This document shows positions 3,189 through 45,322 of a DNA stretch of 55,093 nucleotides, piece after piece. The translations under genes and the position numbers were made by a program. Each line of letters begins with the position of its first letter. The first letter of the stretch is position 1. This stretch comes from Candidatus Terrybacteria bacterium RIFCSPHIGHO2_01_FULL_48_17 (GTDB taxonomy: Bacteria; Patescibacteriota; Minisyncoccia; Terrybacterales; 2-01-FULL-58-14): assembly GCA_001822835.1 (NCBI GenBank), contig MHSS01000014.1:1-55093 (forward strand), given 5' to 3'. The notes beneath the pieces are model-generated. The model was given only the letters and a program-made list of their open reading frames with translations. It was not told the DNA's origin and made no database searches.

Positions 3189-3253
3189 AAATATCCCTCC
3201 TTCCACAATAAATCATAAATGAAAAACGGCAAATGAATAAAAATATCTGGGGG

Positions 3254-3601
3254 TCAGGGCAATTCCCTGTTATCCTCTTCCTTCCATCCGCCCAGCACAT
3301 GAACATGCAAATGATCAATAATCTGCCCCCCTCCCCGCCCTACGTTCATTACCACCTTAAAACCGGACTCGGCAATCCCTTGCATGCGCGCGATATCAGC
3401 GGCGGCGGAAAAAAGGTTCCCCAGAATCTCTCGGCGTGATGCGTCGGTGTCAACCAAGCTCACAATATGCTGGCGCGGAACAACCAAAATATGCACCGGG
3501 GCTTTAGGATGGATGTCTTTGAAGGCAACAAGCTCCTTCGTTTCAAAAATAATATCTCCTTTTTGTCCGCGATTTATAATTTCGCAAAAAATGCACCCCA
3601 T
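3254..3601 (-). CDS. HIT-family nucleotide hydrolase (HinT-like)
   Basis: 115 aa with histidine triad HLHVHVLGG. Confidence 0.9.
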   Translation of the reverse strand: MGCIFCEIINRGQKGDIIFETKELVAFKDIHPKAPVHILVVPRQHIVSLVDTDASRREILGNLFSAAADIARMQGIAESGFKVVMNVGRGGGQIIDHLHVHVLGGWKEEDNRELP

Positions 3602-3619: not shown

Positions 3620-4939
3620 TCAACTTTTATTTACTCGCGGTTTAATTTTTTTCAGGCGTTCCCGAATTTCTTTTACGATATCTTCCCGGGCAACCGTTTC
3701 TTGAGTCCCATCACCCATAGTACGCAAAAGCGCTGTTCCTTCAAGCGCTTCTTTTTGCCCTACGATTAACACAAAAGGAGCGCCTATCTTATCGGCAACT
3801 CGCAGTTGGGATTTAATAGAGTCGCGCCCAAAGGATGCGCGCGCGAGTATCCCGGCTTTCCGCAAATCCTCAAACAAAAGCATCGCTTGATGTTTTGCTT
3901 TCTCCCCAAGTTGCGCAACAAAAACTATAGGCACTTGGGGATGCGCGATTGCCCCTGCCTCGCGGGAAAGCGCTGCGACAATGCGCTCAACGCCTCCCGA
4001 CCCGCCAATCGCCCCCGTGTCTTTTGCGCCAAATTGCTTCATTAAAAGGTCGTAGCGGCCTCCGGCAACCATGGCTGATTGCGCTTTAGGCAACGCCCGA
4101 TCCTCCCCCAGCGCCTCCTCTTCGGGCACAACCTCAAAAACCGTTCGATTATAATAATCAAGGCCCCGAACCAATTTGGTATTAAACACATATGGCACGG
4201 TAAGCTCATCTAAAAACCCCAAAAGCCCCTTGAAGTGTTGCCGGCATTCTTCGCACAGATGATCTATAATTTCTGGGGCATTCATAGCAATTCTTTGGCA
4301 GCGTTCATCCTTACAATCCAAAACCCGCAAAGGACTGGTTCCGAGGCGCTTTCTAGAGTTTGCGCAAAGCTGTTCCTTCCTGCTACGCAAATATCCTCCC
4401 AGCACCTTTTTAAAATACGGGCGGCATTGATTGCAGCCAAGCGAATTAATTTGCAGAGCCGTGTGGTGCAGACCCAACGTTTCAAGCGTTACGGCCAATA
4501 CACGAATTATCTCTACATCGGCCGACACGTCCTTATCGCCCAAAATCTCAAAACCAAACTGCCAAAACTGTCTAAAGCGGCCCGCCTGTTGCCGCTCATG
4601 CCGAAACATTGGGGAAAAATACCAAAGTTTTACCGGTTGCGGCCACGTCTTCATGCCATGTTGTACATAAGCGCGAACCACGGGTGCTGTGCCTTCCGGT
4701 CGCAACGCAAGCCTATCTCCCCCTTTTGTACGCAACGTATACATTTCTTTTTCAACAATATCGGTTGTCTGCCCCAATCCTTTCGAAAAAAGCTCCTCAA
4801 ATTCCAATACCGGCGTTTCTATCCTTCCAAAATCATATGCTTGCGCAACCTCGCGCACCGTATCGTATACACGATTCCACAAGGCCTCATCCTTGGGAAG
4901 AATATCGTGCATACCGGGTGGTGTTTGAAATTTAGGCAT
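3620..4939 (-). CDS. hisS: Histidine--tRNA ligase
   Basis: 439 aa with class II aaRS/HisRS blocks LRPEGTAPVVR, FRHERQQAGRFRQFWQFG and GGRYD. C-terminal anticodon-binding-like region. Confidence 0.95.
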   Translation of the reverse strand: MPKFQTPPGMHDILPKDEALWNRVYDTVREVAQAYDFGRIETPVLEFEELFSKGLGQTTDIVEKEMYTLRTKGGDRLALRPEGTAPVVRAYVQHGMKTWPQPVKLWYFSPMFRHERQQAGRFRQFWQFGFEILGDKDVSADVEIIRVLAVTLETLGLHHTALQINSLGCNQCRPYFKKVLGGYLRSRKEQLCANSRKRLGTSPLRVLDCKDERCQRIAMNAPEIIDHLCEECRQHFKGLLGFLDELTVPYVFNTKLVRGLDYYNRTVFEVVPEEEALGEDRALPKAQSAMVAGGRYDLLMKQFGAKDTGAIGGSGGVERIVAALSREAGAIAHPQVPIVFVAQLGEKAKHQAMLLFEDLRKAGILARASFGRDSIKSQLRVADKIGAPFVLIVGQKEALEGTALLRTMGDGTQETVAREDIVKEIRERLKKIKPRVNKS

Positions 4940-4954
4940 AACTTCGTAAATCTA

Positions 4955-5080
4955 AAGCTCAAAACTCAAATGTCAAATCAATATCCAATGACTTAATATC
5001 CAATTTCCAAACACGTTTCGGATTTGAGACATTGGGATTTTGGATTTCATTTGTCATTTGAATTTTGACATTGGGATTTT
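4955..5080 (-). repeat. Long imperfect palindrome built from CCAAA(A)T/TCAAAT-type words, copy A (hisS leader / lepB 3' flank)
   Basis: Arms 4955-5013 and 5014-5080 are roughly three-quarters complementary by eye. The minus-strand reading is homologous to 12328-12433: AAAATCCCAATG[T/C]CAAA..ATTCAAATG, and TTGAC[A/G]..GAGTTTTG..GATTT next to the ATG. Confidence 0.8.
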
Positions 5081-5082
5081 TA

Positions 5083-5625
5083 TCAATACATTGGTGCTGC
5101 AAACACAGAAAAATGTTGCGGGGGCCACACGCGCAAAAAAGCACGGCCGACAATCGCTTCGCGCGCCAATGTTCCCCAGCGCCTTGAATCAGAGGATGCT
5201 CCTCGATTATCCCCCAACACAATATATTCATCCGGGCCTGCAGAAAGCTCAAATTCTCCCGTGGCCAAAGAATCGGAGATATAACCTTCGGAGAGCTCTG
5301 CTACTTGCTCGCCATTTTGTTCCACAACGACATGTCCGTCTTTTGCCCGTACCGTTTCGCCCGGAAGCCCTATGATTCGCTTAATAAAAAACTGGGATGG
5401 GTCCTGCGGAAAACGAAACACGATTATCTCTCCGCGTTCCGGCTTGCGGAAATGATAGCTCAATTCATCGACAATCAAATAATCGCCATTCGAATACATC
5501 GGTTCCATGGAATAGCCGCGCACAAAAAACGGCTGTGCAACATACAACCGTATCGGCAGGATAATGGCTAAAGCAACGAAAATAACTTTTGCCGAATCCC
5601 AAATAAAGGAAAAAAAGCTTTTCAT
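5083..5625 (-). CDS. lepB: Signal peptidase I (S26)
   Basis: Catalytic boxes GYSMEPMY (Ser), KRIIGLPGE (Lys) and GDNRGASSDSR, plus an N-terminal TM. Trimmed to Met32 (ATG 5623-5625). Confidence 0.9.
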   Translation of the reverse strand: MKSFFSFIWDSAKVIFVALAIILPIRLYVAQPFFVRGYSMEPMYSNGDYLIVDELSYHFRKPERGEIIVFRFPQDPSQFFIKRIIGLPGETVRAKDGHVVVEQNGEQVAELSEGYISDSLATGEFELSAGPDEYIVLGDNRGASSDSRRWGTLAREAIVGRAFLRVWPPQHFSVFAAPMY

Positions 5626-5723
5626 GATAAGGCACATCCCCGCGTGCTTATGGTTACATCCATTGTGGCACCAGCGTAACGTTTTTGCAACTTGGGCATA
5701 TTTCATGTAATGATACAAGCGCC

Positions 5724-6761: not shown

Positions 6762-6841
6762 ATGCGAATGGGCAATGGTGCGAACAAATACGAATACCAT
6801 ATAGACGCAGATGACCCGAATGGAGCATCCGAATGGCCCGG

Positions 6842-6877
6842 ATAAAAAAGCAAAGAGCCAACCCAAGGGGGGCTGGC
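6842..6877 (-). terminator. Terminator hairpin between convergent LCP gene and small membrane ORF
   Basis: Stem GCCAACCC/GGGCTGGC (6857-6864/6870-6877, one mismatch). The minus strand continues TCTTTGCTTTTTTA. The plus-strand T-tract is weaker. Confidence 0.5.
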
Positions 6878-6889
6878 GTTGTTACTATT

Positions 6890-11258: not shown

Positions 11259-11388
11259 CGCTTTCTCCTTTTCGTTGTGAATGAACGCTGCTTCCCTCGG
11301 CCACCCCGAAAATGCGGGGCTACATCCTTACGGACAACTTCGTAAAGCAGTTCTTTCCTATCATAAAAAGGCTGAGCTGTCAACGCAT

Positions 11389-11418
11389 TTGACATCCCGC
11401 GCAGAATTATCTTATATT
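11389..11418 (+). promoter_or_regulatory. Sigma70-like promoter for dprA-topA
   Basis: TTGACA (11389-11394), 18-nt spacer, TATATT (11413-11418). Confidence 0.5.
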
Positions 11419-11426
11419 CGCACTAG

Positions 11427-11467
11427 CCAGTATTCGGATTATTCGGATGATGTTCAATACTGGTTTT
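11427..11467 (+). promoter_or_regulatory. Leader hairpin plus T-tract between promoter and dprA start (possible attenuator)
   Basis: 8-bp stem CCAGTATT/AATACTGG (11427-11434/11456-11463). The loop contains tandem ATTCGG words. Followed by TTTT, then ATG at 11475. Confidence 0.45.
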
Positions 11468-11474
11468 CGCCCTT

Positions 11475-12329
11475 ATGCAAGAAATTAAAGTCCTTAAAAG
11501 AGATGGGTTTCCTCCGCTTTTGCAGGAAATCCACGATCCGCCGGAAGAGCTTTTCGTGTGGGGAGAAATCCCGGATATGCCCATGCTTGCGGTGGTTGGT
11601 ACGCGCAAAGTATCGCCATACGGCAAACAGGTTACCCCTCGGCTTGTGCAAGATTTGGCCCGCGCAGGGCTTTGTATTGTCTCGGGGCTTGCCTATGGTA
11701 TTGATGCCTTGGCGCACCAAGCTGCGCTTGATGCCGGGGCAAAAACAGTTGCGGTGTTAGGATCCGGCCTTGACCGGGCTTCCTTATATCCCCGCGAGCA
11801 CTGGCGCTTGGCAGAACGAATTGTAAAAAATGGCGGAGCAGTTGTTTCCGAATATCCCGAGGGCGCAGAACCCAAACCTTATCATTTTCCCGCACGAAAC
11901 AGGATAGTAGCAGGCATGTCGCGCGGCGTATTAGTAATTGAGGCGCCGGAAAAATCGGGGGCATTAATCACCGCGGATTTGGCGCTTCGCGAAAACCGAG
12001 ACGTCTTTTGCGTGCCCGGATCCATTGCGTCGCAAAATTCAGTAGGGCCAAACCGCCTCATCCAACTTGGTGCAAAACTGGTGATGCGCGCAGAAGATGT
12101 TTTGGAAGAATGGGAAATGGAAACAGCAATTAGTAATCAGGCATCAGGAATCAGTTTATCGGAAGAGCAACAGAAAATTATTGAGGCCCTGAAGGATGCG
12201 CCGCGACACGTAGATGCTATAGTAAAAGAAACAAAGCTTGACATCACCACATGTAATGTGGGACTAGTAGAACTTGAATTGCAAGGACTCATAAAAAATC
12301 TGGGCGGAGGAATGTATGCTCGCGTCTAA
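11475..12329 (+). CDS. dprA: DNA processing protein DprA
   Basis: 284 aa with GLAYGIDALAHQAAL, GSGLD and YHFPARNRIVAGMS blocks, plus a C-terminal winged-helix-like tail. Confidence 0.93.
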   Translation: MQEIKVLKRDGFPPLLQEIHDPPEELFVWGEIPDMPMLAVVGTRKVSPYGKQVTPRLVQDLARAGLCIVSGLAYGIDALAHQAALDAGAKTVAVLGSGLDRASLYPREHWRLAERIVKNGGAVVSEYPEGAEPKPYHFPARNRIVAGMSRGVLVIEAPEKSGALITADLALRENRDVFCVPGSIASQNSVGPNRLIQLGAKLVMRAEDVLEEWEMETAISNQASGISLSEEQQKIIEALKDAPRHVDAIVKETKLDITTCNVGLVELELQGLIKNLGGGMYARV

Positions 12330-12433
12330 ATGTCAAATGTCAAAATCCCAATGCCAAATCAAATTCAAATGGCCGAATGTCCAAATTTGGATTTTGGCCC
12401 TTATTTGACGTTGGAGTTTTGGAGTTTGGATTT
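12328..12433 (+). repeat. Long imperfect palindrome of CCAAA(A)T-type words, copy B (fills the dprA-topA spacer)
   Basis: Arms 12328-12386 and 12387-12433 are complementary, centred on GTCCAAATTTGGAT. Homologous to copy A on the opposite strand. It ends directly at the topA ATG. Confidence 0.8.
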
Positions 12434-14560
12434 ATGAAACTGGTTATTGTTGAATCCCCTACCAAAGCAAAAACGATCTCGCAATTTCTCGGAGAATCCT
12501 ACCGAGTTGTTTCCTCATATGGACACGTACGTGATCTTCCAAAATCAAAACTTGGCGTTGATATTGATCATAACTTTGAACCGCAATACGTTATTCCTAC
12601 CAAGGTCCGCAAGCGCGTGAATGAGCTTAAAAAAGATGCGCAAAAAGCAACGGAGTTGATTTTGGCAACGGATGAAGACAGGGAAGGAGAAGCGATCGCG
12701 TGGCACTTAATCCAAGCCCTGGGCTTGGGAAGTACAAAATCCAAAGCCCAAAATCCAAAACAAATTGAGCGGATTGTGTTTCATGAGATTACGAAGCAAG
12801 CGATTGAGGAAGCGCTGAAAAACCCGCGGAGTATAGACGAGAAGCTGGTGGATGCGCAGCAGGCGCGGCGCGTGCTTGACCGCTTGGTGGGATATAACCT
12901 CTCGCCGTTTCTGTGGAAAAAGGTAGCGCGCGGCCTTTCCGCAGGGCGCGTACAATCGGTTGCGCTACGACTCATTGTTGAACGCGAGCGCGAACGAAGA
13001 GCTTTTCAGGCGCAAGAATACTGGAACGTAGTCGCTTCGCTCCAAGTTCCAAATCCAAAATCCCCGCCTGCCGACGGGCGGGCAGGCAAAATCCAAAACG
13101 CCCTTGAGGCGGAATTGATTGAATGGAATAAACAAAAGCTTGGGAAGTTTGATATTCAAAATGAAAAACAGACAAAGGAAATAATTAAAGCGCTCCAAGG
13201 AATCGAGTGGGAAATTGCTAACGTTGAAGTAAAAGAGCGCAAACTCAACCCTCCTCTCCCCTTCCGCACCTCCACCATGCAACAGGAGGCGTCGCGTCGC
13301 TTTGGTTTTTCCGCAAAACAAACCATGATGATTGCACAACAACTTTACGAAGGCATAGAAGTCAACGGACGCTCAACGGGACTTATCACCTATATGCGTA
13401 CTGATTCGGCGAATCTTTCGAACCAATTCCTCACTGCAGCACAAAGAGTTCTTTCGCAACATTTTGGCAATGAATATGCCCAAGGTTCCCGTCGCTATAC
13501 CTCCCAAGCCAAGGGTGCACAGGAAGCCCACGAGGCCATACGACCAAGCGATCCTGCGCTTATCCCACAAGAACTTCAAAAGGAACTTCTGCCGCGGCAG
13601 TGGAGGCTCTACGATCTTATATGGCGGCGCGCGATGGCTTCACAAATGCCCCAAGCACGACTTCGCGCAAAAACAATAGACGTTGTTGCAAAAGATCGGG
13701 CGCTTTTCAGGGCTAACGGCAGCACCACGGATTTTGACGGTTTTATGCGTCTGTGGCCATCGTCACGCAAAGAAAGCGAGCTTCCAGATGTCTCGCAAGG
13801 ACAAAAAATAACATGCAAAAAAATAACTCCCAACCAACACTTTACAGAACCCGCACCCCGTTATTCTGAAGCTACACTCGTAAAAACCCTCGAAGAAAAT
13901 GGGATTGGCCGGCCTTCAACATATGCGCCAACGCTTTCCACCATTCAAGACCGCGGATATGTAATGCGCGACGAAAACCGGCGGCTTTTTCCCACCGAAC
14001 TTGGCGAGCTCGTTAACGGCCTTTTGGTCGAACATTTTCCCGAACTCGTTGATGTTACGTTTACGGCTACCATGGAAAAAGAGCTCGATGAAGTTGCCGA
14101 AGGTCTGCAACAATATGTAACTGTTGTCAGAGATTTTTGGAAACCGTTTTCGTCTCACGTTGAGGAAAAACTGGAAACCGTGAAGGAAATAAAGGTAAAG
14201 GAGCCAACGGACGAAACATGTCCAAGGTGCGGAAAGCCCCTGGTCATTAAGCTTGGACGCTTTGGCAGATTCCTTGCCTGTACCGGTTTTCCCGATTGCA
14301 AAACAACAAAATCAATAAAAGAAAACCGCACGAACGTAATCTGCCCGCGATGCAAAAAAGGAGAGCTTGTTTGCAAACGAAGCCGTCGCGGAAAGGTTTT
14401 TTATGGCTGCTCCGATTACCCCGATTGTGATTTTGCGCTGTGGGATAAACCAAATGGCAAAGCATGCCCAAATTGCAATTCCCTGCTCGTTATGAAACGG
14501 GGCGAGGAGCGTTGTTCTGATAAAACATGTAAATGGCTCCCGCCCACCGCTATACAGTAA
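12434..14560 (+). CDS. topA: DNA topoisomerase I
   Basis: TOPRIM start MKLVIVESPTKAKT, DEDREGEAIAWH, active-site region ITYMRTDS, and three C-terminal CxxC..CxxC zinc ribbons. Start moved to ATG 12434. Confidence 0.97.
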   Translation: MKLVIVESPTKAKTISQFLGESYRVVSSYGHVRDLPKSKLGVDIDHNFEPQYVIPTKVRKRVNELKKDAQKATELILATDEDREGEAIAWHLIQALGLGSTKSKAQNPKQIERIVFHEITKQAIEEALKNPRSIDEKLVDAQQARRVLDRLVGYNLSPFLWKKVARGLSAGRVQSVALRLIVERERERRAFQAQEYWNVVASLQVPNPKSPPADGRAGKIQNALEAELIEWNKQKLGKFDIQNEKQTKEIIKALQGIEWEIANVEVKERKLNPPLPFRTSTMQQEASRRFGFSAKQTMMIAQQLYEGIEVNGRSTGLITYMRTDSANLSNQFLTAAQRVLSQHFGNEYAQGSRRYTSQAKGAQEAHEAIRPSDPALIPQELQKELLPRQWRLYDLIWRRAMASQMPQARLRAKTIDVVAKDRALFRANGSTTDFDGFMRLWPSSRKESELPDVSQGQKITCKKITPNQHFTEPAPRYSEATLVKTLEENGIGRPSTYAPTLSTIQDRGYVMRDENRRLFPTELGELVNGLLVEHFPELVDVTFTATMEKELDEVAEGLQQYVTVVRDFWKPFSSHVEEKLETVKEIKVKEPTDETCPRCGKPLVIKLGRFGRFLACTGFPDCKTTKSIKENRTNVICPRCKKGELVCKRSRRGKVFYGCSDYPDCDFALWDKPNGKACPNCNSLLVMKRGEERCSDKTCKWLPPTAIQ
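13049..13102 (+). repeat. In-frame repeat-like insert inside topA
   Basis: CCAAATCCAAAATCC and CAAAATCCAAAAC direct words flank a GC hairpin (GCCTGCC..GGCAGGC, 13066-13087). The segment encodes PNPKSPPADGRAGKIQN. Confidence 0.5.
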
Positions 14561-17808: not shown

Positions 17809-17812
17809 GGCA

Positions 17813-17848
17813 ACAAAAAACAGCCGCCAACGGGCGGCTGTCTTTTAT
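17813..17848. terminator. Bidirectional terminator (relA / parB)
   Basis: AAAAAAA-ACAGCCGCC-AACG-GGCGGCTGT-CTTTTAT, 9-bp GC stem. Confidence 0.85.
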
Positions 17849-17855
17849 AAACATT

Positions 17856-40187: not shown

Positions 40188-40194
40188 ATAAATC

Positions 40195-40272
40195 GCGGAC
40201 TTACGCGGACGCTACGCTGACTTACGCTAACAATTTTCCGAGACAGTCCGCGTTTAGTCTGCGTTAGTCCGC
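40195..40272 (-). repeat. Inverted arrays of ~10-11-nt tandem units directly upstream of nusA
   Basis: Left arm CGGACTTACG-CGGACGCTACG-CTGACTTACG. Right arm AGTCCGCGTTT-AGTCTGCGTT-AGTCCGC. Outer 12 positions pair 11/12 (40195-40206 with 40261-40272). It ends 8 nt before the ATG. Confidence 0.7.
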
Positions 40273-40287
40273 ATGCGCCGCAGCGCA

Positions 40288-40313
40288 AACAAAAAAGCGT
40301 CCATATGGACGCT
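40288..40313 (-). terminator. Strong terminator after the serine-protease gene
   Basis: AGCGTCC-ATAT-GGACGCT followed on the minus strand by TTTTTTG. Confidence 0.85.
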
Positions 40314-40351
40314 CTATAGTCAAGCATGACGCAGGAATGAGATTCTGTCAA

Positions 40352-40427
40352 CCCCGTTAGAAAATTGCGGGATAATCTGCGCAACTCATTTTACGGTCAT
40401 ACAGATTTCGGCAATTCTCTAACGGGG
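40352..40427 (-). other. 76-nt extended stem-loop in the protease 3' UTR (candidate structured RNA)
   Basis: 17-bp outer stem, 40352-40368 with 40411-40427. Its single mismatch is A:C on the plus strand but G:U on the minus strand. 6-bp inner stem AATCTG/CAGATT and a 22-nt apical loop. Confidence 0.6.
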
Positions 40428-40434
40428 TCAAGGC

Positions 40435-45144: not shown

Positions 45145-45196
45145 AACTTTCAATCCCGTGCAAGCAGAAAGCAATACGAGCCCGAAAAAAATTATC

Positions 45197-45300
45197 GGGC
45201 ACGAGCGGTTGCCCGCCGAGCGGCCTTAAGGAACGGAAGGATCCCTTGCAGACGCGAGGTGGGCTACCCGAGTGCCCGCGCTTCTTGTGCGAGGACAGCG
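45197..45300 (-). repeat. Dispersed ~105-nt GC-rich intergenic repeat, copy 2 (inverted relative to copy 1)
   Basis: Its reverse complement aligns with 10334-10440. Both copies are sense-oriented with respect to the flanking genes. Confidence 0.85.
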
Positions 45301-45322
45301 AAAAACGCTGCCGCAAGCACAT

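Follow-up and report, generated by a model that had tools for sequence, protein, structure and literature searches.

Two intercistronic hairpins of a Candidatus Terrybacteria genome belong to a dispersed family of heptamer-word palindromes linked to PF05635 genes

Introduction

Coxiella's intervening sequence (IVS), a 'selfish' element 428 nt long, lies in helix 45 of the 23S rRNA, carries an S23p (PF05635) open reading frame (ORF), is excised by RNase III and contains tandem heptamers of strain-variable number just upstream of this ORF (PMC4990558). Helix 45 is one of the two classical IVS sites (PMC4990558, PMC2801512). In the 23S genes of the candidate phyla radiation (CPR) many short ORF-less insertions occupy IVS sites, and 23S_rRNA_IVP ORFs are found in insertions of both 16S and 23S genes (PMC11270868). 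PF05635 proteins resemble Avd, which is essential for the retrohoming of diversity-generating retroelements (DGRs), in sequence as well as in structure (PMC10053308), and PF05635 genes have also been found wedged between cas genes (PMC3936711). Heptamer repeats of the TAACTGA type, known from Beggiatoaceae, cyanobacteria and Bacteroidetes, lie near start codons and show a patchy spread across phyla that suggests horizontal transfer (PMC4679880). Here, we analyze the lepB–hisS and dprA–topA spacers of a 55,093-nt contig of Candidatus Terrybacteria bacterium RIFCSPHIGHO2_01_FULL_48_17 (MHSS01000014.1, positions 1–55,093, termed the window), and place both of them in a family of palindromes with arms of heptamer words, which is dispersed into unrelated contexts, absent from relatives at the same spacers and linked to PF05635.

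Rickettsia palindromic elements (RPEs), reported by Ogata et al. in 2000, are said to be palindromic, dispersed over Rickettsia genomes and inserted in frame into genes, and we know of no transposase associated with them. Cyanobacterial short tandemly repeated repetitive (STRR) sequences reportedly contain the words CCCCAAT and TTTGTCA (Mazel et al. 1990), which resemble the words CCCAATG and ATTTGTC of the elements studied here. A literal search of the literature for the element sequence strings found no paper. A search of the openly accessible literature, which covers few subscription journals, found no description of a CAAAT/ATTTG word-arm family dispersed across phyla, and no account that unites dispersed intergenic hairpins, in-frame additions to proteins, insertions at helix 45 and cassettes with PF05635 as a single phenomenon.

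Results

Two spacers filled by members of one palindrome family

Judged by their sequence, both window spacers belong to a palindromic family built of heptamer words. Each of them is occupied completely by a single element:

4940–5082, minus strand: copy 1, a complete ORF-less heptamer-word hairpin occupying the entire lepB–hisS spacer.
5028–5082, minus strand: 5′ arm of copy 1 (sense), of NCAAAT and CCCAATG words, beginning directly past the lepB stop; profile match and period-7 self-match.
4943–5010, minus strand: 3′ arm of copy 1 (sense), of ATTTGN and TTTGAG words, stopping 9 nt short of the hisS ATG; profile match.
12330–12433, plus strand: copy 2, a complete ORF-less element occupying the entire dprA–topA spacer; its 3′ arm holds the topA GGAG and abuts the ATG.

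The direct likeness of the two copies is modest. The stretches that an earlier note, made from the letters of the window alone, had named as homologous align with 85% identity over 34 nt in one case and with 89% over 19 nt in the other, in agreement with that reading, and by itself this similarity is a thin basis for a 'family'. We used an arm profile made solely from metagenome elements, with the window left out. It matched 12322–12381 on the plus strand (E 7e-14), 5095–5028 on the minus strand (E 3.6e-11), 4943–5010 on the plus strand (E 1.7e-6; the reverse complement of the copy 1 3′ arm) and 12439–12383 on the minus strand (E 8.6e-5), and the sole further match in the 55 kb lies inside topA at 12720–12766. 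Because all four arms match this independently built profile, both window copies are family members.

RNA folding of the whole spacers resulted in one long imperfect hairpin for each. The sense RNA of copy 1 has a folding energy of −40.9 kcal/mol (z −4.75, reached by a single dinucleotide shuffle among 200) and that of copy 2 of −35.4 kcal/mol (z −4.0, reached by none among 200), and the antisense RNA and DNA-parameter folds are likewise better than those of the shuffles. Among all 24 window spacers of at least 45 nt, copies 1 and 2 are within the handful with strongly non-random folding. The sense strand folds better than the antisense strand by 5.6 and 9.8 kcal/mol, respectively, and copy 2 contains an inner GC-containing hairpin at 12371–12400. 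The self-match of the window arms is maximal at a lag of 7 nt (0.52), with a further signal at lag 14, compared to a lag-7 value of 0.48 for the family arms. The window elements measure 100–145 nt with 30–37% GC, and both loci are identical in sequence across four independent assemblies. These data bear out the earlier description of the spacers as long imperfect palindromes of degenerate words, which stop 9 nt short of the hisS ATG and reach that of topA (0 nt).

At gathering thresholds the sole Rfam match in the window was a tRNA-Leu, outside the elements, consistent with the previous statement that they hold no known regulatory RNA. In E-value mode the elements matched only plant miRNA-precursor models, far below threshold, which reflects only the general form of long AU-rich hairpins. 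The ORF at 4959–5252, earlier dismissed as a translation of the element, is indeed read-through of copy 1. Consensus scans found no intrinsic terminator (short GC-rich stem with U tract) inside either element. They detected one promoter-like site in copy 1:

4949–4976, minus strand: sigma-70-like site TTGACA-16 nt-TAGATT in the copy 1 3′ arm, pointing outward toward hisS; a consensus match only.

This site agrees with the consensus at 10 of 12 positions, at 2 sites found versus 0.6 expected, and the scan showed no equivalent in copy 2. A promoter as the general function was rejected, since the promoter-like site is present in copy 1 only.

Breadth and genomic contexts of the family

The polarity of the family is constant, 5′-(NCAAAT)n...(ATTTGN)n-3′, and reads the same on both strands, with the two arms pairing into a long stem. 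A typical copy runs 5′ ..AATGTCAAATG[T/A/C]CAAAATCCCAATGTCAAAT.., followed by a variable centre, at times with nested GC-rich palindromes, and ..GGATTTCATTTGACATTTGAGCTTTGACATTTGACATT 3′, with a total length of mostly 75–180 nt. The 23-nt motif ATGNCAAAATCCCAATGYCAAAT, with 21 specified bases, is present in at least 118 metagenome contigs. The pattern used for the initial scan of GTDB genomes, AAAATCCCAATGYCNNAW, proved too loose and yielded 119 loci that were mostly chance, with about 13 genuine hairpins. The GTDB carriers comprise Patescibacteria/Moraniibacteriota, Desulfobacteraceae, Syntrophaceae, Planctomycetaceae and Bdellovibrionales, as well as an 816-kb Calditrichia contig and a complete Nitrospirales chromosome. 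With phages considered as possible vectors, the motif was sought in IMG/VR and had no match there, a result that the size of the collection makes uninformative.

Two pairs of loci (L189/L201 and L176/L243; L numbers denote loci outside the window) hold elements about 96% identical over 78–148 nt within unrelated flanks. The earlier proposal of a dispersed, RPE-like repeat family, made from two copies, is thus borne out by the at least 118 contigs with one motif, the several phyla and the near-identical copies in unrelated flanks.

For 52 two-armed copies both flanks could be resolved. Co-directional genes surround 43 of these, convergent genes 5 and divergent genes 4, and the copies typically begin a few nucleotides past the upstream stop and occupy the spacer. 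The distance to start codons is not fixed, and the motif-bearing arm shows no preferred orientation relative to the genes (20 vs 23). Hence, the shared orientation toward the downstream gene noted before holds for the two window copies, not as a property of the family. Among the motif-selected loci no other copy lies beside hisS, lepB, dprA or topA; the L254/L255 pair described below was found via its protein.

Further observations concern individual copies. The copy at L139 71–142 directly adjoins a tRNA gene. Pure single-heptamer tandems are located at the outer end of the 3′ arm in L253 (1861–1957; ATTTGRC, about 12 times) and on the minus strand of L201 (around 3540; GGATTTT, about 6 times), and such long runs indicate microsatellite-like expansion.

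Absence of the element from relatives at the same spacers

The genes flanking the two copies are:

3620–4939, minus strand: hisS, downstream of copy 1 (PF13393, PF00587, PF03129).
5083–5718, minus strand: lepB, signal peptidase I, upstream of copy 1 (PF10502 Peptidase_S26).
11475–12329, plus strand: dprA, upstream of copy 2 (PF02481, PF17782).
12434–14560, plus strand: topA, downstream of copy 2 (Toprim, Topoisom_bac and Zn_ribbon_Top1 domains).

The window HisS is 100% identical to the histidine–tRNA ligase of Ca. Terrybacteria RIFCSPLOWO2_01_FULL_48_14, and topA orthologues begin with MKLVIVESP. In relatives, the lepB–hisS spacer measures 33 nt (HisS 74% identical) or 9 nt (57%), or contains a 116-nt hairpin of different words (55%). 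The short spacer of L124 holds one TCTAAATTCCAATCAC. The arm profile gave no match in the relatives' loci L124–L128, and conservation by descent at lepB–hisS and dprA–topA among Terrybacteria was rejected, as the element was not found in the syntenic loci.

The hairpin of other words in L127 (9885–10000, lepB–hisS spacer) has the same architecture with a different vocabulary, in the order A-rich AAAAGT/AAAACT words, GC-rich central hairpin (TCTCTCGCC..GGCGAGAG) and T-rich words. The dprA–topA spacer of the same locus contains a long inverted repeat unrelated to copy 2 (3250–3390).

Insertions within rRNA and protein-coding genes

Copies of the family are also found inside genes. Two cases concern 23S rRNA: in L148, which equals the sequence of L172 from a contig of 260 kb, and in L219, the apical loop of the helix at large-subunit (LSU) model positions ~1210–1223 carries the element. 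We take this helix to be helix 45, after the IVS literature (PMC4990558, PMC2801512) and not by mapping to E. coli numbering.

In LepA, a 29-residue in-frame insert falls between residues that adjoin each other in 2ywe, a structure from Aquifex, and complete or one-armed in-frame copies are present in MetRS, LeuRS and a Mur ligase, as well as in KsgA in the antisense frame. Together with a copy in topA of the window, these cases give substance to the RPE analogy drawn before, for which in-frame insertion into conserved protein genes is characteristic. Two stretches of the window topA are concerned:

13045–13100, plus strand: in-frame intragenic copy in topA, AAATCCAAAATCC words around the palindrome CCGCCTGCCGACGGGCGGGCAGG (13064–13086), encoding ..NPKSPPADGRAGKIQN..
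12720–12766, plus strand: weak arm-like stretch in topA, encoding ..STKSKAQNPKQ..; nhmmer E 1.7e-3.

The peptide encoded by 13045–13100 forms a 13–14-residue insertion compared to the L127 TopA and to PDB 6ozw. Its nested palindrome recurs inside the word arms of L218 and L147, the same peptide occurs in the LeuRS of L203, and the GC palindrome CCGCCTGCCGACGGGCGGGCAGG has no second occurrence in the window. For 12720–12766 the encoded loop exceeds that of solved TopA structures by 8 residues and does not differ in length from that of L127, so that its assignment as a family copy is tentative.

PF05635 genes between the word arms

Long forms of the family contain a gene. In L130 two inverted motif copies enclose a 128-codon ORF that encodes a PF05635 '23S rRNA-intervening sequence protein' (TIGR02436 four-helix-bundle protein), and a PF05635 ORF is also located between the arms in L199, L202, L207 and L227. 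To remove selection bias, we chose five PF05635 genes on long contigs with protein homology as the only criterion. Arms of the type (NCAAAT)n ... (ATTTGN)n flank every one of the five and pair strongly (duplex z −5.5 to −10.3), and the arm profile matches 4 of the 5 cassettes. An Ignavibacteria PF05635 cassette, found via protein homology, has the same arms. In L091 (2050–2560) the PF05635 gene lies inside inverted heptamer arrays of opposite polarity, AATTTTC/AATTTCT ... GAAAATT/AGAAATT; because these arms use other heptamers, word arms around PF05635 genes are not limited to the CAAAT vocabulary.

No transposase was present among the genes adjoining the five cassettes, and neither a reverse transcriptase nor template/variable repeats adjoin the cassettes examined. 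The window contains no PF05635 gene. The earlier note had found no transposase in the window, which stands, and the family does have an associated ORF outside the window, PF05635.

The cassette of L254/L255 is located between dprA and topA, in a host with a TopA 51% identical to that of the window, and its arms align with copy 2. Within copy 2 we identified a relic of the gene:

12351–12369, plus strand: start codon and first codons of a PF05635 (23S rRNA intervening-sequence protein, IVP) gene, ATGCCAAATCAAATTCAAA; L254 has ATGCCAAATCAAACTCAAA, the IVP start (MPNQTQ...).

Copy 2 keeps the start codon and first 6 codons of the L254 PF05635 gene. As it keeps these codons and its arms align with L254, copy 2 looks like a former cassette that lost its ORF.

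Many PF05635-bearing contigs are just 0.6–2 kb long, and the Logan contig L004 terminates exactly in the copy 1 loop (its position 1). The elements seem to break short-read assemblies.

Strand asymmetry and the reading frame across copy 2

Strand-specific selection on the RNA, at which the window copies and 7 of 10 early cases had hinted, was rejected, as the sense strand folds better in 22 vs 16 of 38 non-redundant elements (Wilcoxon p = 0.24). Family-wide selection for translation through the element was rejected on the numbers of stop-free frames (9 sense vs 6 antisense) and of stops (259 vs 268). The strand asymmetry of the two window copies is therefore not a property of the family.

Copy 2 alone stands out within the family for stop-freedom. 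Its three sense frames contain 0, 1 and 0 stops, at about 9% of single frames stop-free across family elements, and one of them forms a short ORF:

12330–12437, plus strand: 35-codon short ORF spanning all of copy 2, with its ATG directly after the dprA TAA and its TGA overlapping the topA ATG (ATGA).

The hairpin in the dprA–topA spacer of L127 (3245–3394) is bridged by a 49-codon ORF with TAATG (dprA side) and ATGA (topA) overlaps, such that two non-homologous hairpins share the dprA–topA spacer in two Terrybacteria genomes, each bridged by an ORF (35 and 49 codons). Such bridging suggests a relay that carries ribosomes across any sequence inserted between the two genes. At topA there is probably a local host adaptation, in which copy 2 is kept stop-free as a 35-codon relay ORF.

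Other structured spacers in the window

Several window spacers outside the two copies are structured as well. The spacer at 40188–40434, between two minus-strand genes, has a very stable fold (−105.7 kcal/mol, z −7.65) composed of three parts, a hairpin of 85 nt with the arms ACCCCGTTAGAAAATTGC / GCAATTCTCTAACGGGGT (40351–40428), a canonical terminator of GC stem and U tract, and a hairpin of different words (GCGGACTTAC / GTAAGTCCGC type). Its arms CCCGTTAGA...TCTAACGGG resemble the hairpin in the dprA–topA spacer of L127 (3250–3390). The spacer at 45175–45322 (61% GC; −65.8 kcal/mol, z −3.8) closes with a terminator-like stem and U tract. Rfam gave no match to it up to E <= 1, and it may represent a small RNA or a leader missed by annotation. 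One-sided short word repeats at 6762–6889 and 11259–11474 (CGAATGG/CGAATAC and two copies of TATTCGGAT) form no strong overall hairpin. The short spacers between convergent genes at 17809–17855 and 14561–14612 fold strongly (z down to −12 vs mononucleotide shuffles) and are probably ordinary bidirectional terminators.

Discussion

Dispersal into unrelated contexts, gain and loss, absence from relatives, the helix-45 site in rRNA and the link to PF05635 characterize the family to which the two window spacers belong. We favour, with a probability of roughly 70%, the reading that both are ORF-less copies of a dispersed, IVS-type selfish palindromic family without a dedicated regulatory role. The full element consists of heptamer-word arms around a small gene for a PF05635 four-helix-bundle protein. 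The hairpin-only form corresponds to short IVSs of rRNA in the way that this cassette corresponds to the IVSs with an ORF known from Leptospira and Coxiella. The element behaves as selfish, dispersed DNA and occupies sites that can accommodate a hairpin or one more surface loop, namely intercistronic spacers, the tip of 23S helix 45 and loops of housekeeping proteins. The transcript is predicted to form an imperfect stem of 50–60 bp that RNase III may cut as it does in rRNA IVSs, which would separate the lepB/hisS and dprA/topA messages; alternatively, translating ribosomes and helicases may simply melt the stem. At topA the Shine-Dalgarno GGAG would be placed within the stem and the ATG at the 3′ arm. 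Elements of this kind would persist as nearly harmless at their sites, not by regulating hisS or topA, and we infer that they have no dedicated regulatory function.

Several points weigh against this reading. We infer mobility from the distribution of the copies alone, and PF05635 is not a known transposase; inspection of the junctions, which included no pair of empty and filled sites, showed no target-site duplication or defined target. Cleavage of the hairpins by RNase III would follow by analogy with rRNA IVSs. Only about 5% of the motif-selected loci contain the PF05635 ORF, and the dprA–topA position common to copy 2 and L254 may have been inherited or may mark a hot spot. Slippage remodels the arms, as in the (GGATTTT)n run of L201 and the (ATTTGRC)n run of L253, and the degenerate, length-variable arms could partly reflect such local slippage. 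Finally, the better fold of the sense strand in both window copies and the unusual scarcity of stops in copy 2 leave room for some local function.

Of the known systems, 23S rRNA IVSs (Salmonella, Campylobacter, Leptospira, Coxiella; helix 25/45) resemble the family in their extended hairpin, in the helix 45 members, in PF05635 ORFs that some of them carry between pairing arms, in the heptamers beside the ORF (Coxiella) and in their sporadic, horizontal-looking distribution. They differ in that the window copies and most family members lie outside rRNA, in mRNA spacers or coding sequence; a location in helix 45 was found only for other family members, L148/L172 and L219. Long forms of the family contain the PF05635 ORF, whereas the window copies are ORF-less. 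RPEs are alike as palindromes of ~100–150 nt that are intergenic or inserted in frame into conserved genes as surface peptides, a likeness of behaviour and not a sequence-based membership. Unlike RPEs, which are not known outside Rickettsia, the family spans many phyla and has heptamer-word arms and a full-length form with PF05635.

Repetitive extragenic palindromic (REP) sequences, their mosaic arrays (bacterial interspersed mosaic elements, BIMEs) and REPINs, and miniature inverted-repeat transposable elements (MITEs; Correia, ERIC, RUP), share with the family short palindromes in many copies, located intercistronically just past stops. REP and MITE sequences sometimes create promoters, and copy 1 carries the outward TTGACA-16-TAGATT. 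In contrast to the GC-rich 20–40-nt palindromes with a 5′ tetranucleotide of REP/BIME, the elements are longer and AT-richer heptamer arrays without a GTAG-type head, and no RAYT turned up, with no search aimed at RAYT. Unlike MITEs, the family has no transposase-derived terminal inverted repeats (TIRs), its arms being degenerate heptamer arrays of variable length and not a fixed sequence. Reclassification as a MITE, which the earlier note had foreseen in case a transposase existed, finds no support: TIRs from a transposase-encoding insertion sequence were not found and PF05635 is the sole associated ORF. STRR and TAACTGA repeats, compared by description, are similar in their period-7 intergenic words near start codons and their patchiness across phyla; they are mostly one-sided direct arrays of one heptamer, whereas the family has two facing degenerate arrays that can enclose PF05635. 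Avd shares the resemblance to PF05635 proteins, and differs in that the examined cassettes adjoin neither a reverse transcriptase nor template/variable repeats.

A stronger proposal, which we regard as tentative and rather unlikely, holds that the PF05635 (Avd-like) gene with its heptamer-word arms is an autonomous mobile element of broad host range, of which the hairpin-only copies are non-autonomous derivatives. A pentameric four-helix-bundle protein would recognize the 7-nt words as RNA or single-stranded DNA and bring about spread, perhaps by way of an RNA intermediate in the manner of Avd during retrohoming, with operon spacers, rRNA helix tips and coding loops as targets.

That the hairpins are host-selected intercistronic terminators or mRNA stabilizers, of the kind by which REP/BIME elements shield the mRNA upstream of them, with A-rich 5′ and U-rich 3′ arms serving bidirectional nested termination, appears unlikely. 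Elements beginning a few nucleotides past stops, 43 of 52 of them between co-directional genes, would fit such a role, as would the polarity of an A/C-rich arm followed by a U/G-rich arm, the same on both strands, and the inner hairpin of copy 2. However, neither element contains a terminator-like site by consensus scan, canonical terminators of GC stem and U tract are used elsewhere, for example inside 40188–40434, and copies in rRNA and coding sequence cannot be terminators; by our estimate, the co-directional share is also near the expectation for any intergenic feature.

Growth in place, by heptamer slippage and template-switch 'palindrome correction' with the shared words arising convergently from mutational or compositional bias, we consider quite improbable. 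The strong period-7 structure is in line with it, as are the tandem (GGATTTT)n and (ATTTGRC)n, the length differences between close copies, the heptamer copy number that varies among Coxiella strains (PMC4990558), the single TCTAAATTCCAATCAC in the short spacer of L124 and the hairpins of other words in the same genomes. Against this stand the recurrence of an exact motif of 21 specified bases across at least 118 contigs and in many phyla, 96% identical copies over 78–148 nt in unrelated flanks, and the same sequence interrupting conserved proteins and rRNA helix 45; slippage probably shapes the arms after arrival, and leaves the arrival unexplained.

A dedicated cis-regulatory leader, a role raised in the earlier note, in which pairing would hide the ribosome-binding site or start of hisS and topA and so control their translation, for instance as a thermometer-like or protein-titrated switch, is very unlikely: the 3′ arms ending 9 and 0 nt from the ATG, the topA GGAG inside the stem, the sense-strand advantage of both window copies (5.6 and 9.8 kcal/mol) and the two stop-free sense frames of copy 2 speak for it, yet relatives have spacers of 33 nt, 9 nt or an unrelated hairpin without the element, the family shows no orientation bias (20 vs 23), no sense-fold bias (p = 0.24) and no fixed start-codon distance, and copies of the same element also reside in rRNA, within coding sequence and on both sides of PF05635 genes.

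IVSs have so far been regarded as a 23S rRNA oddity, PF05635 proteins as orphans and the insertion of palindromes into protein genes as a peculiarity of Rickettsia. The locus described here ties the three together, as one family, ranging from CPR to Nitrospirota and Desulfobacterota, gives intercistronic hairpins, helix-45 insertions, in-frame peptides and arms around PF05635. If true, this would offer a concrete origin of rRNA IVSs that can be tested, a way into the function of the very large Avd-homologous family of orphan proteins, and one source of extra loops in CPR proteins and of breaks in CPR assemblies. It would also caution against annotating such spacers as riboswitches or leaders, and against trusting the short ORFs called there, which are mostly spurious. 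Should the autonomous-element proposal hold as well, the classical 23S rRNA IVSs would be the rRNA-resident minority of a far larger class of elements.

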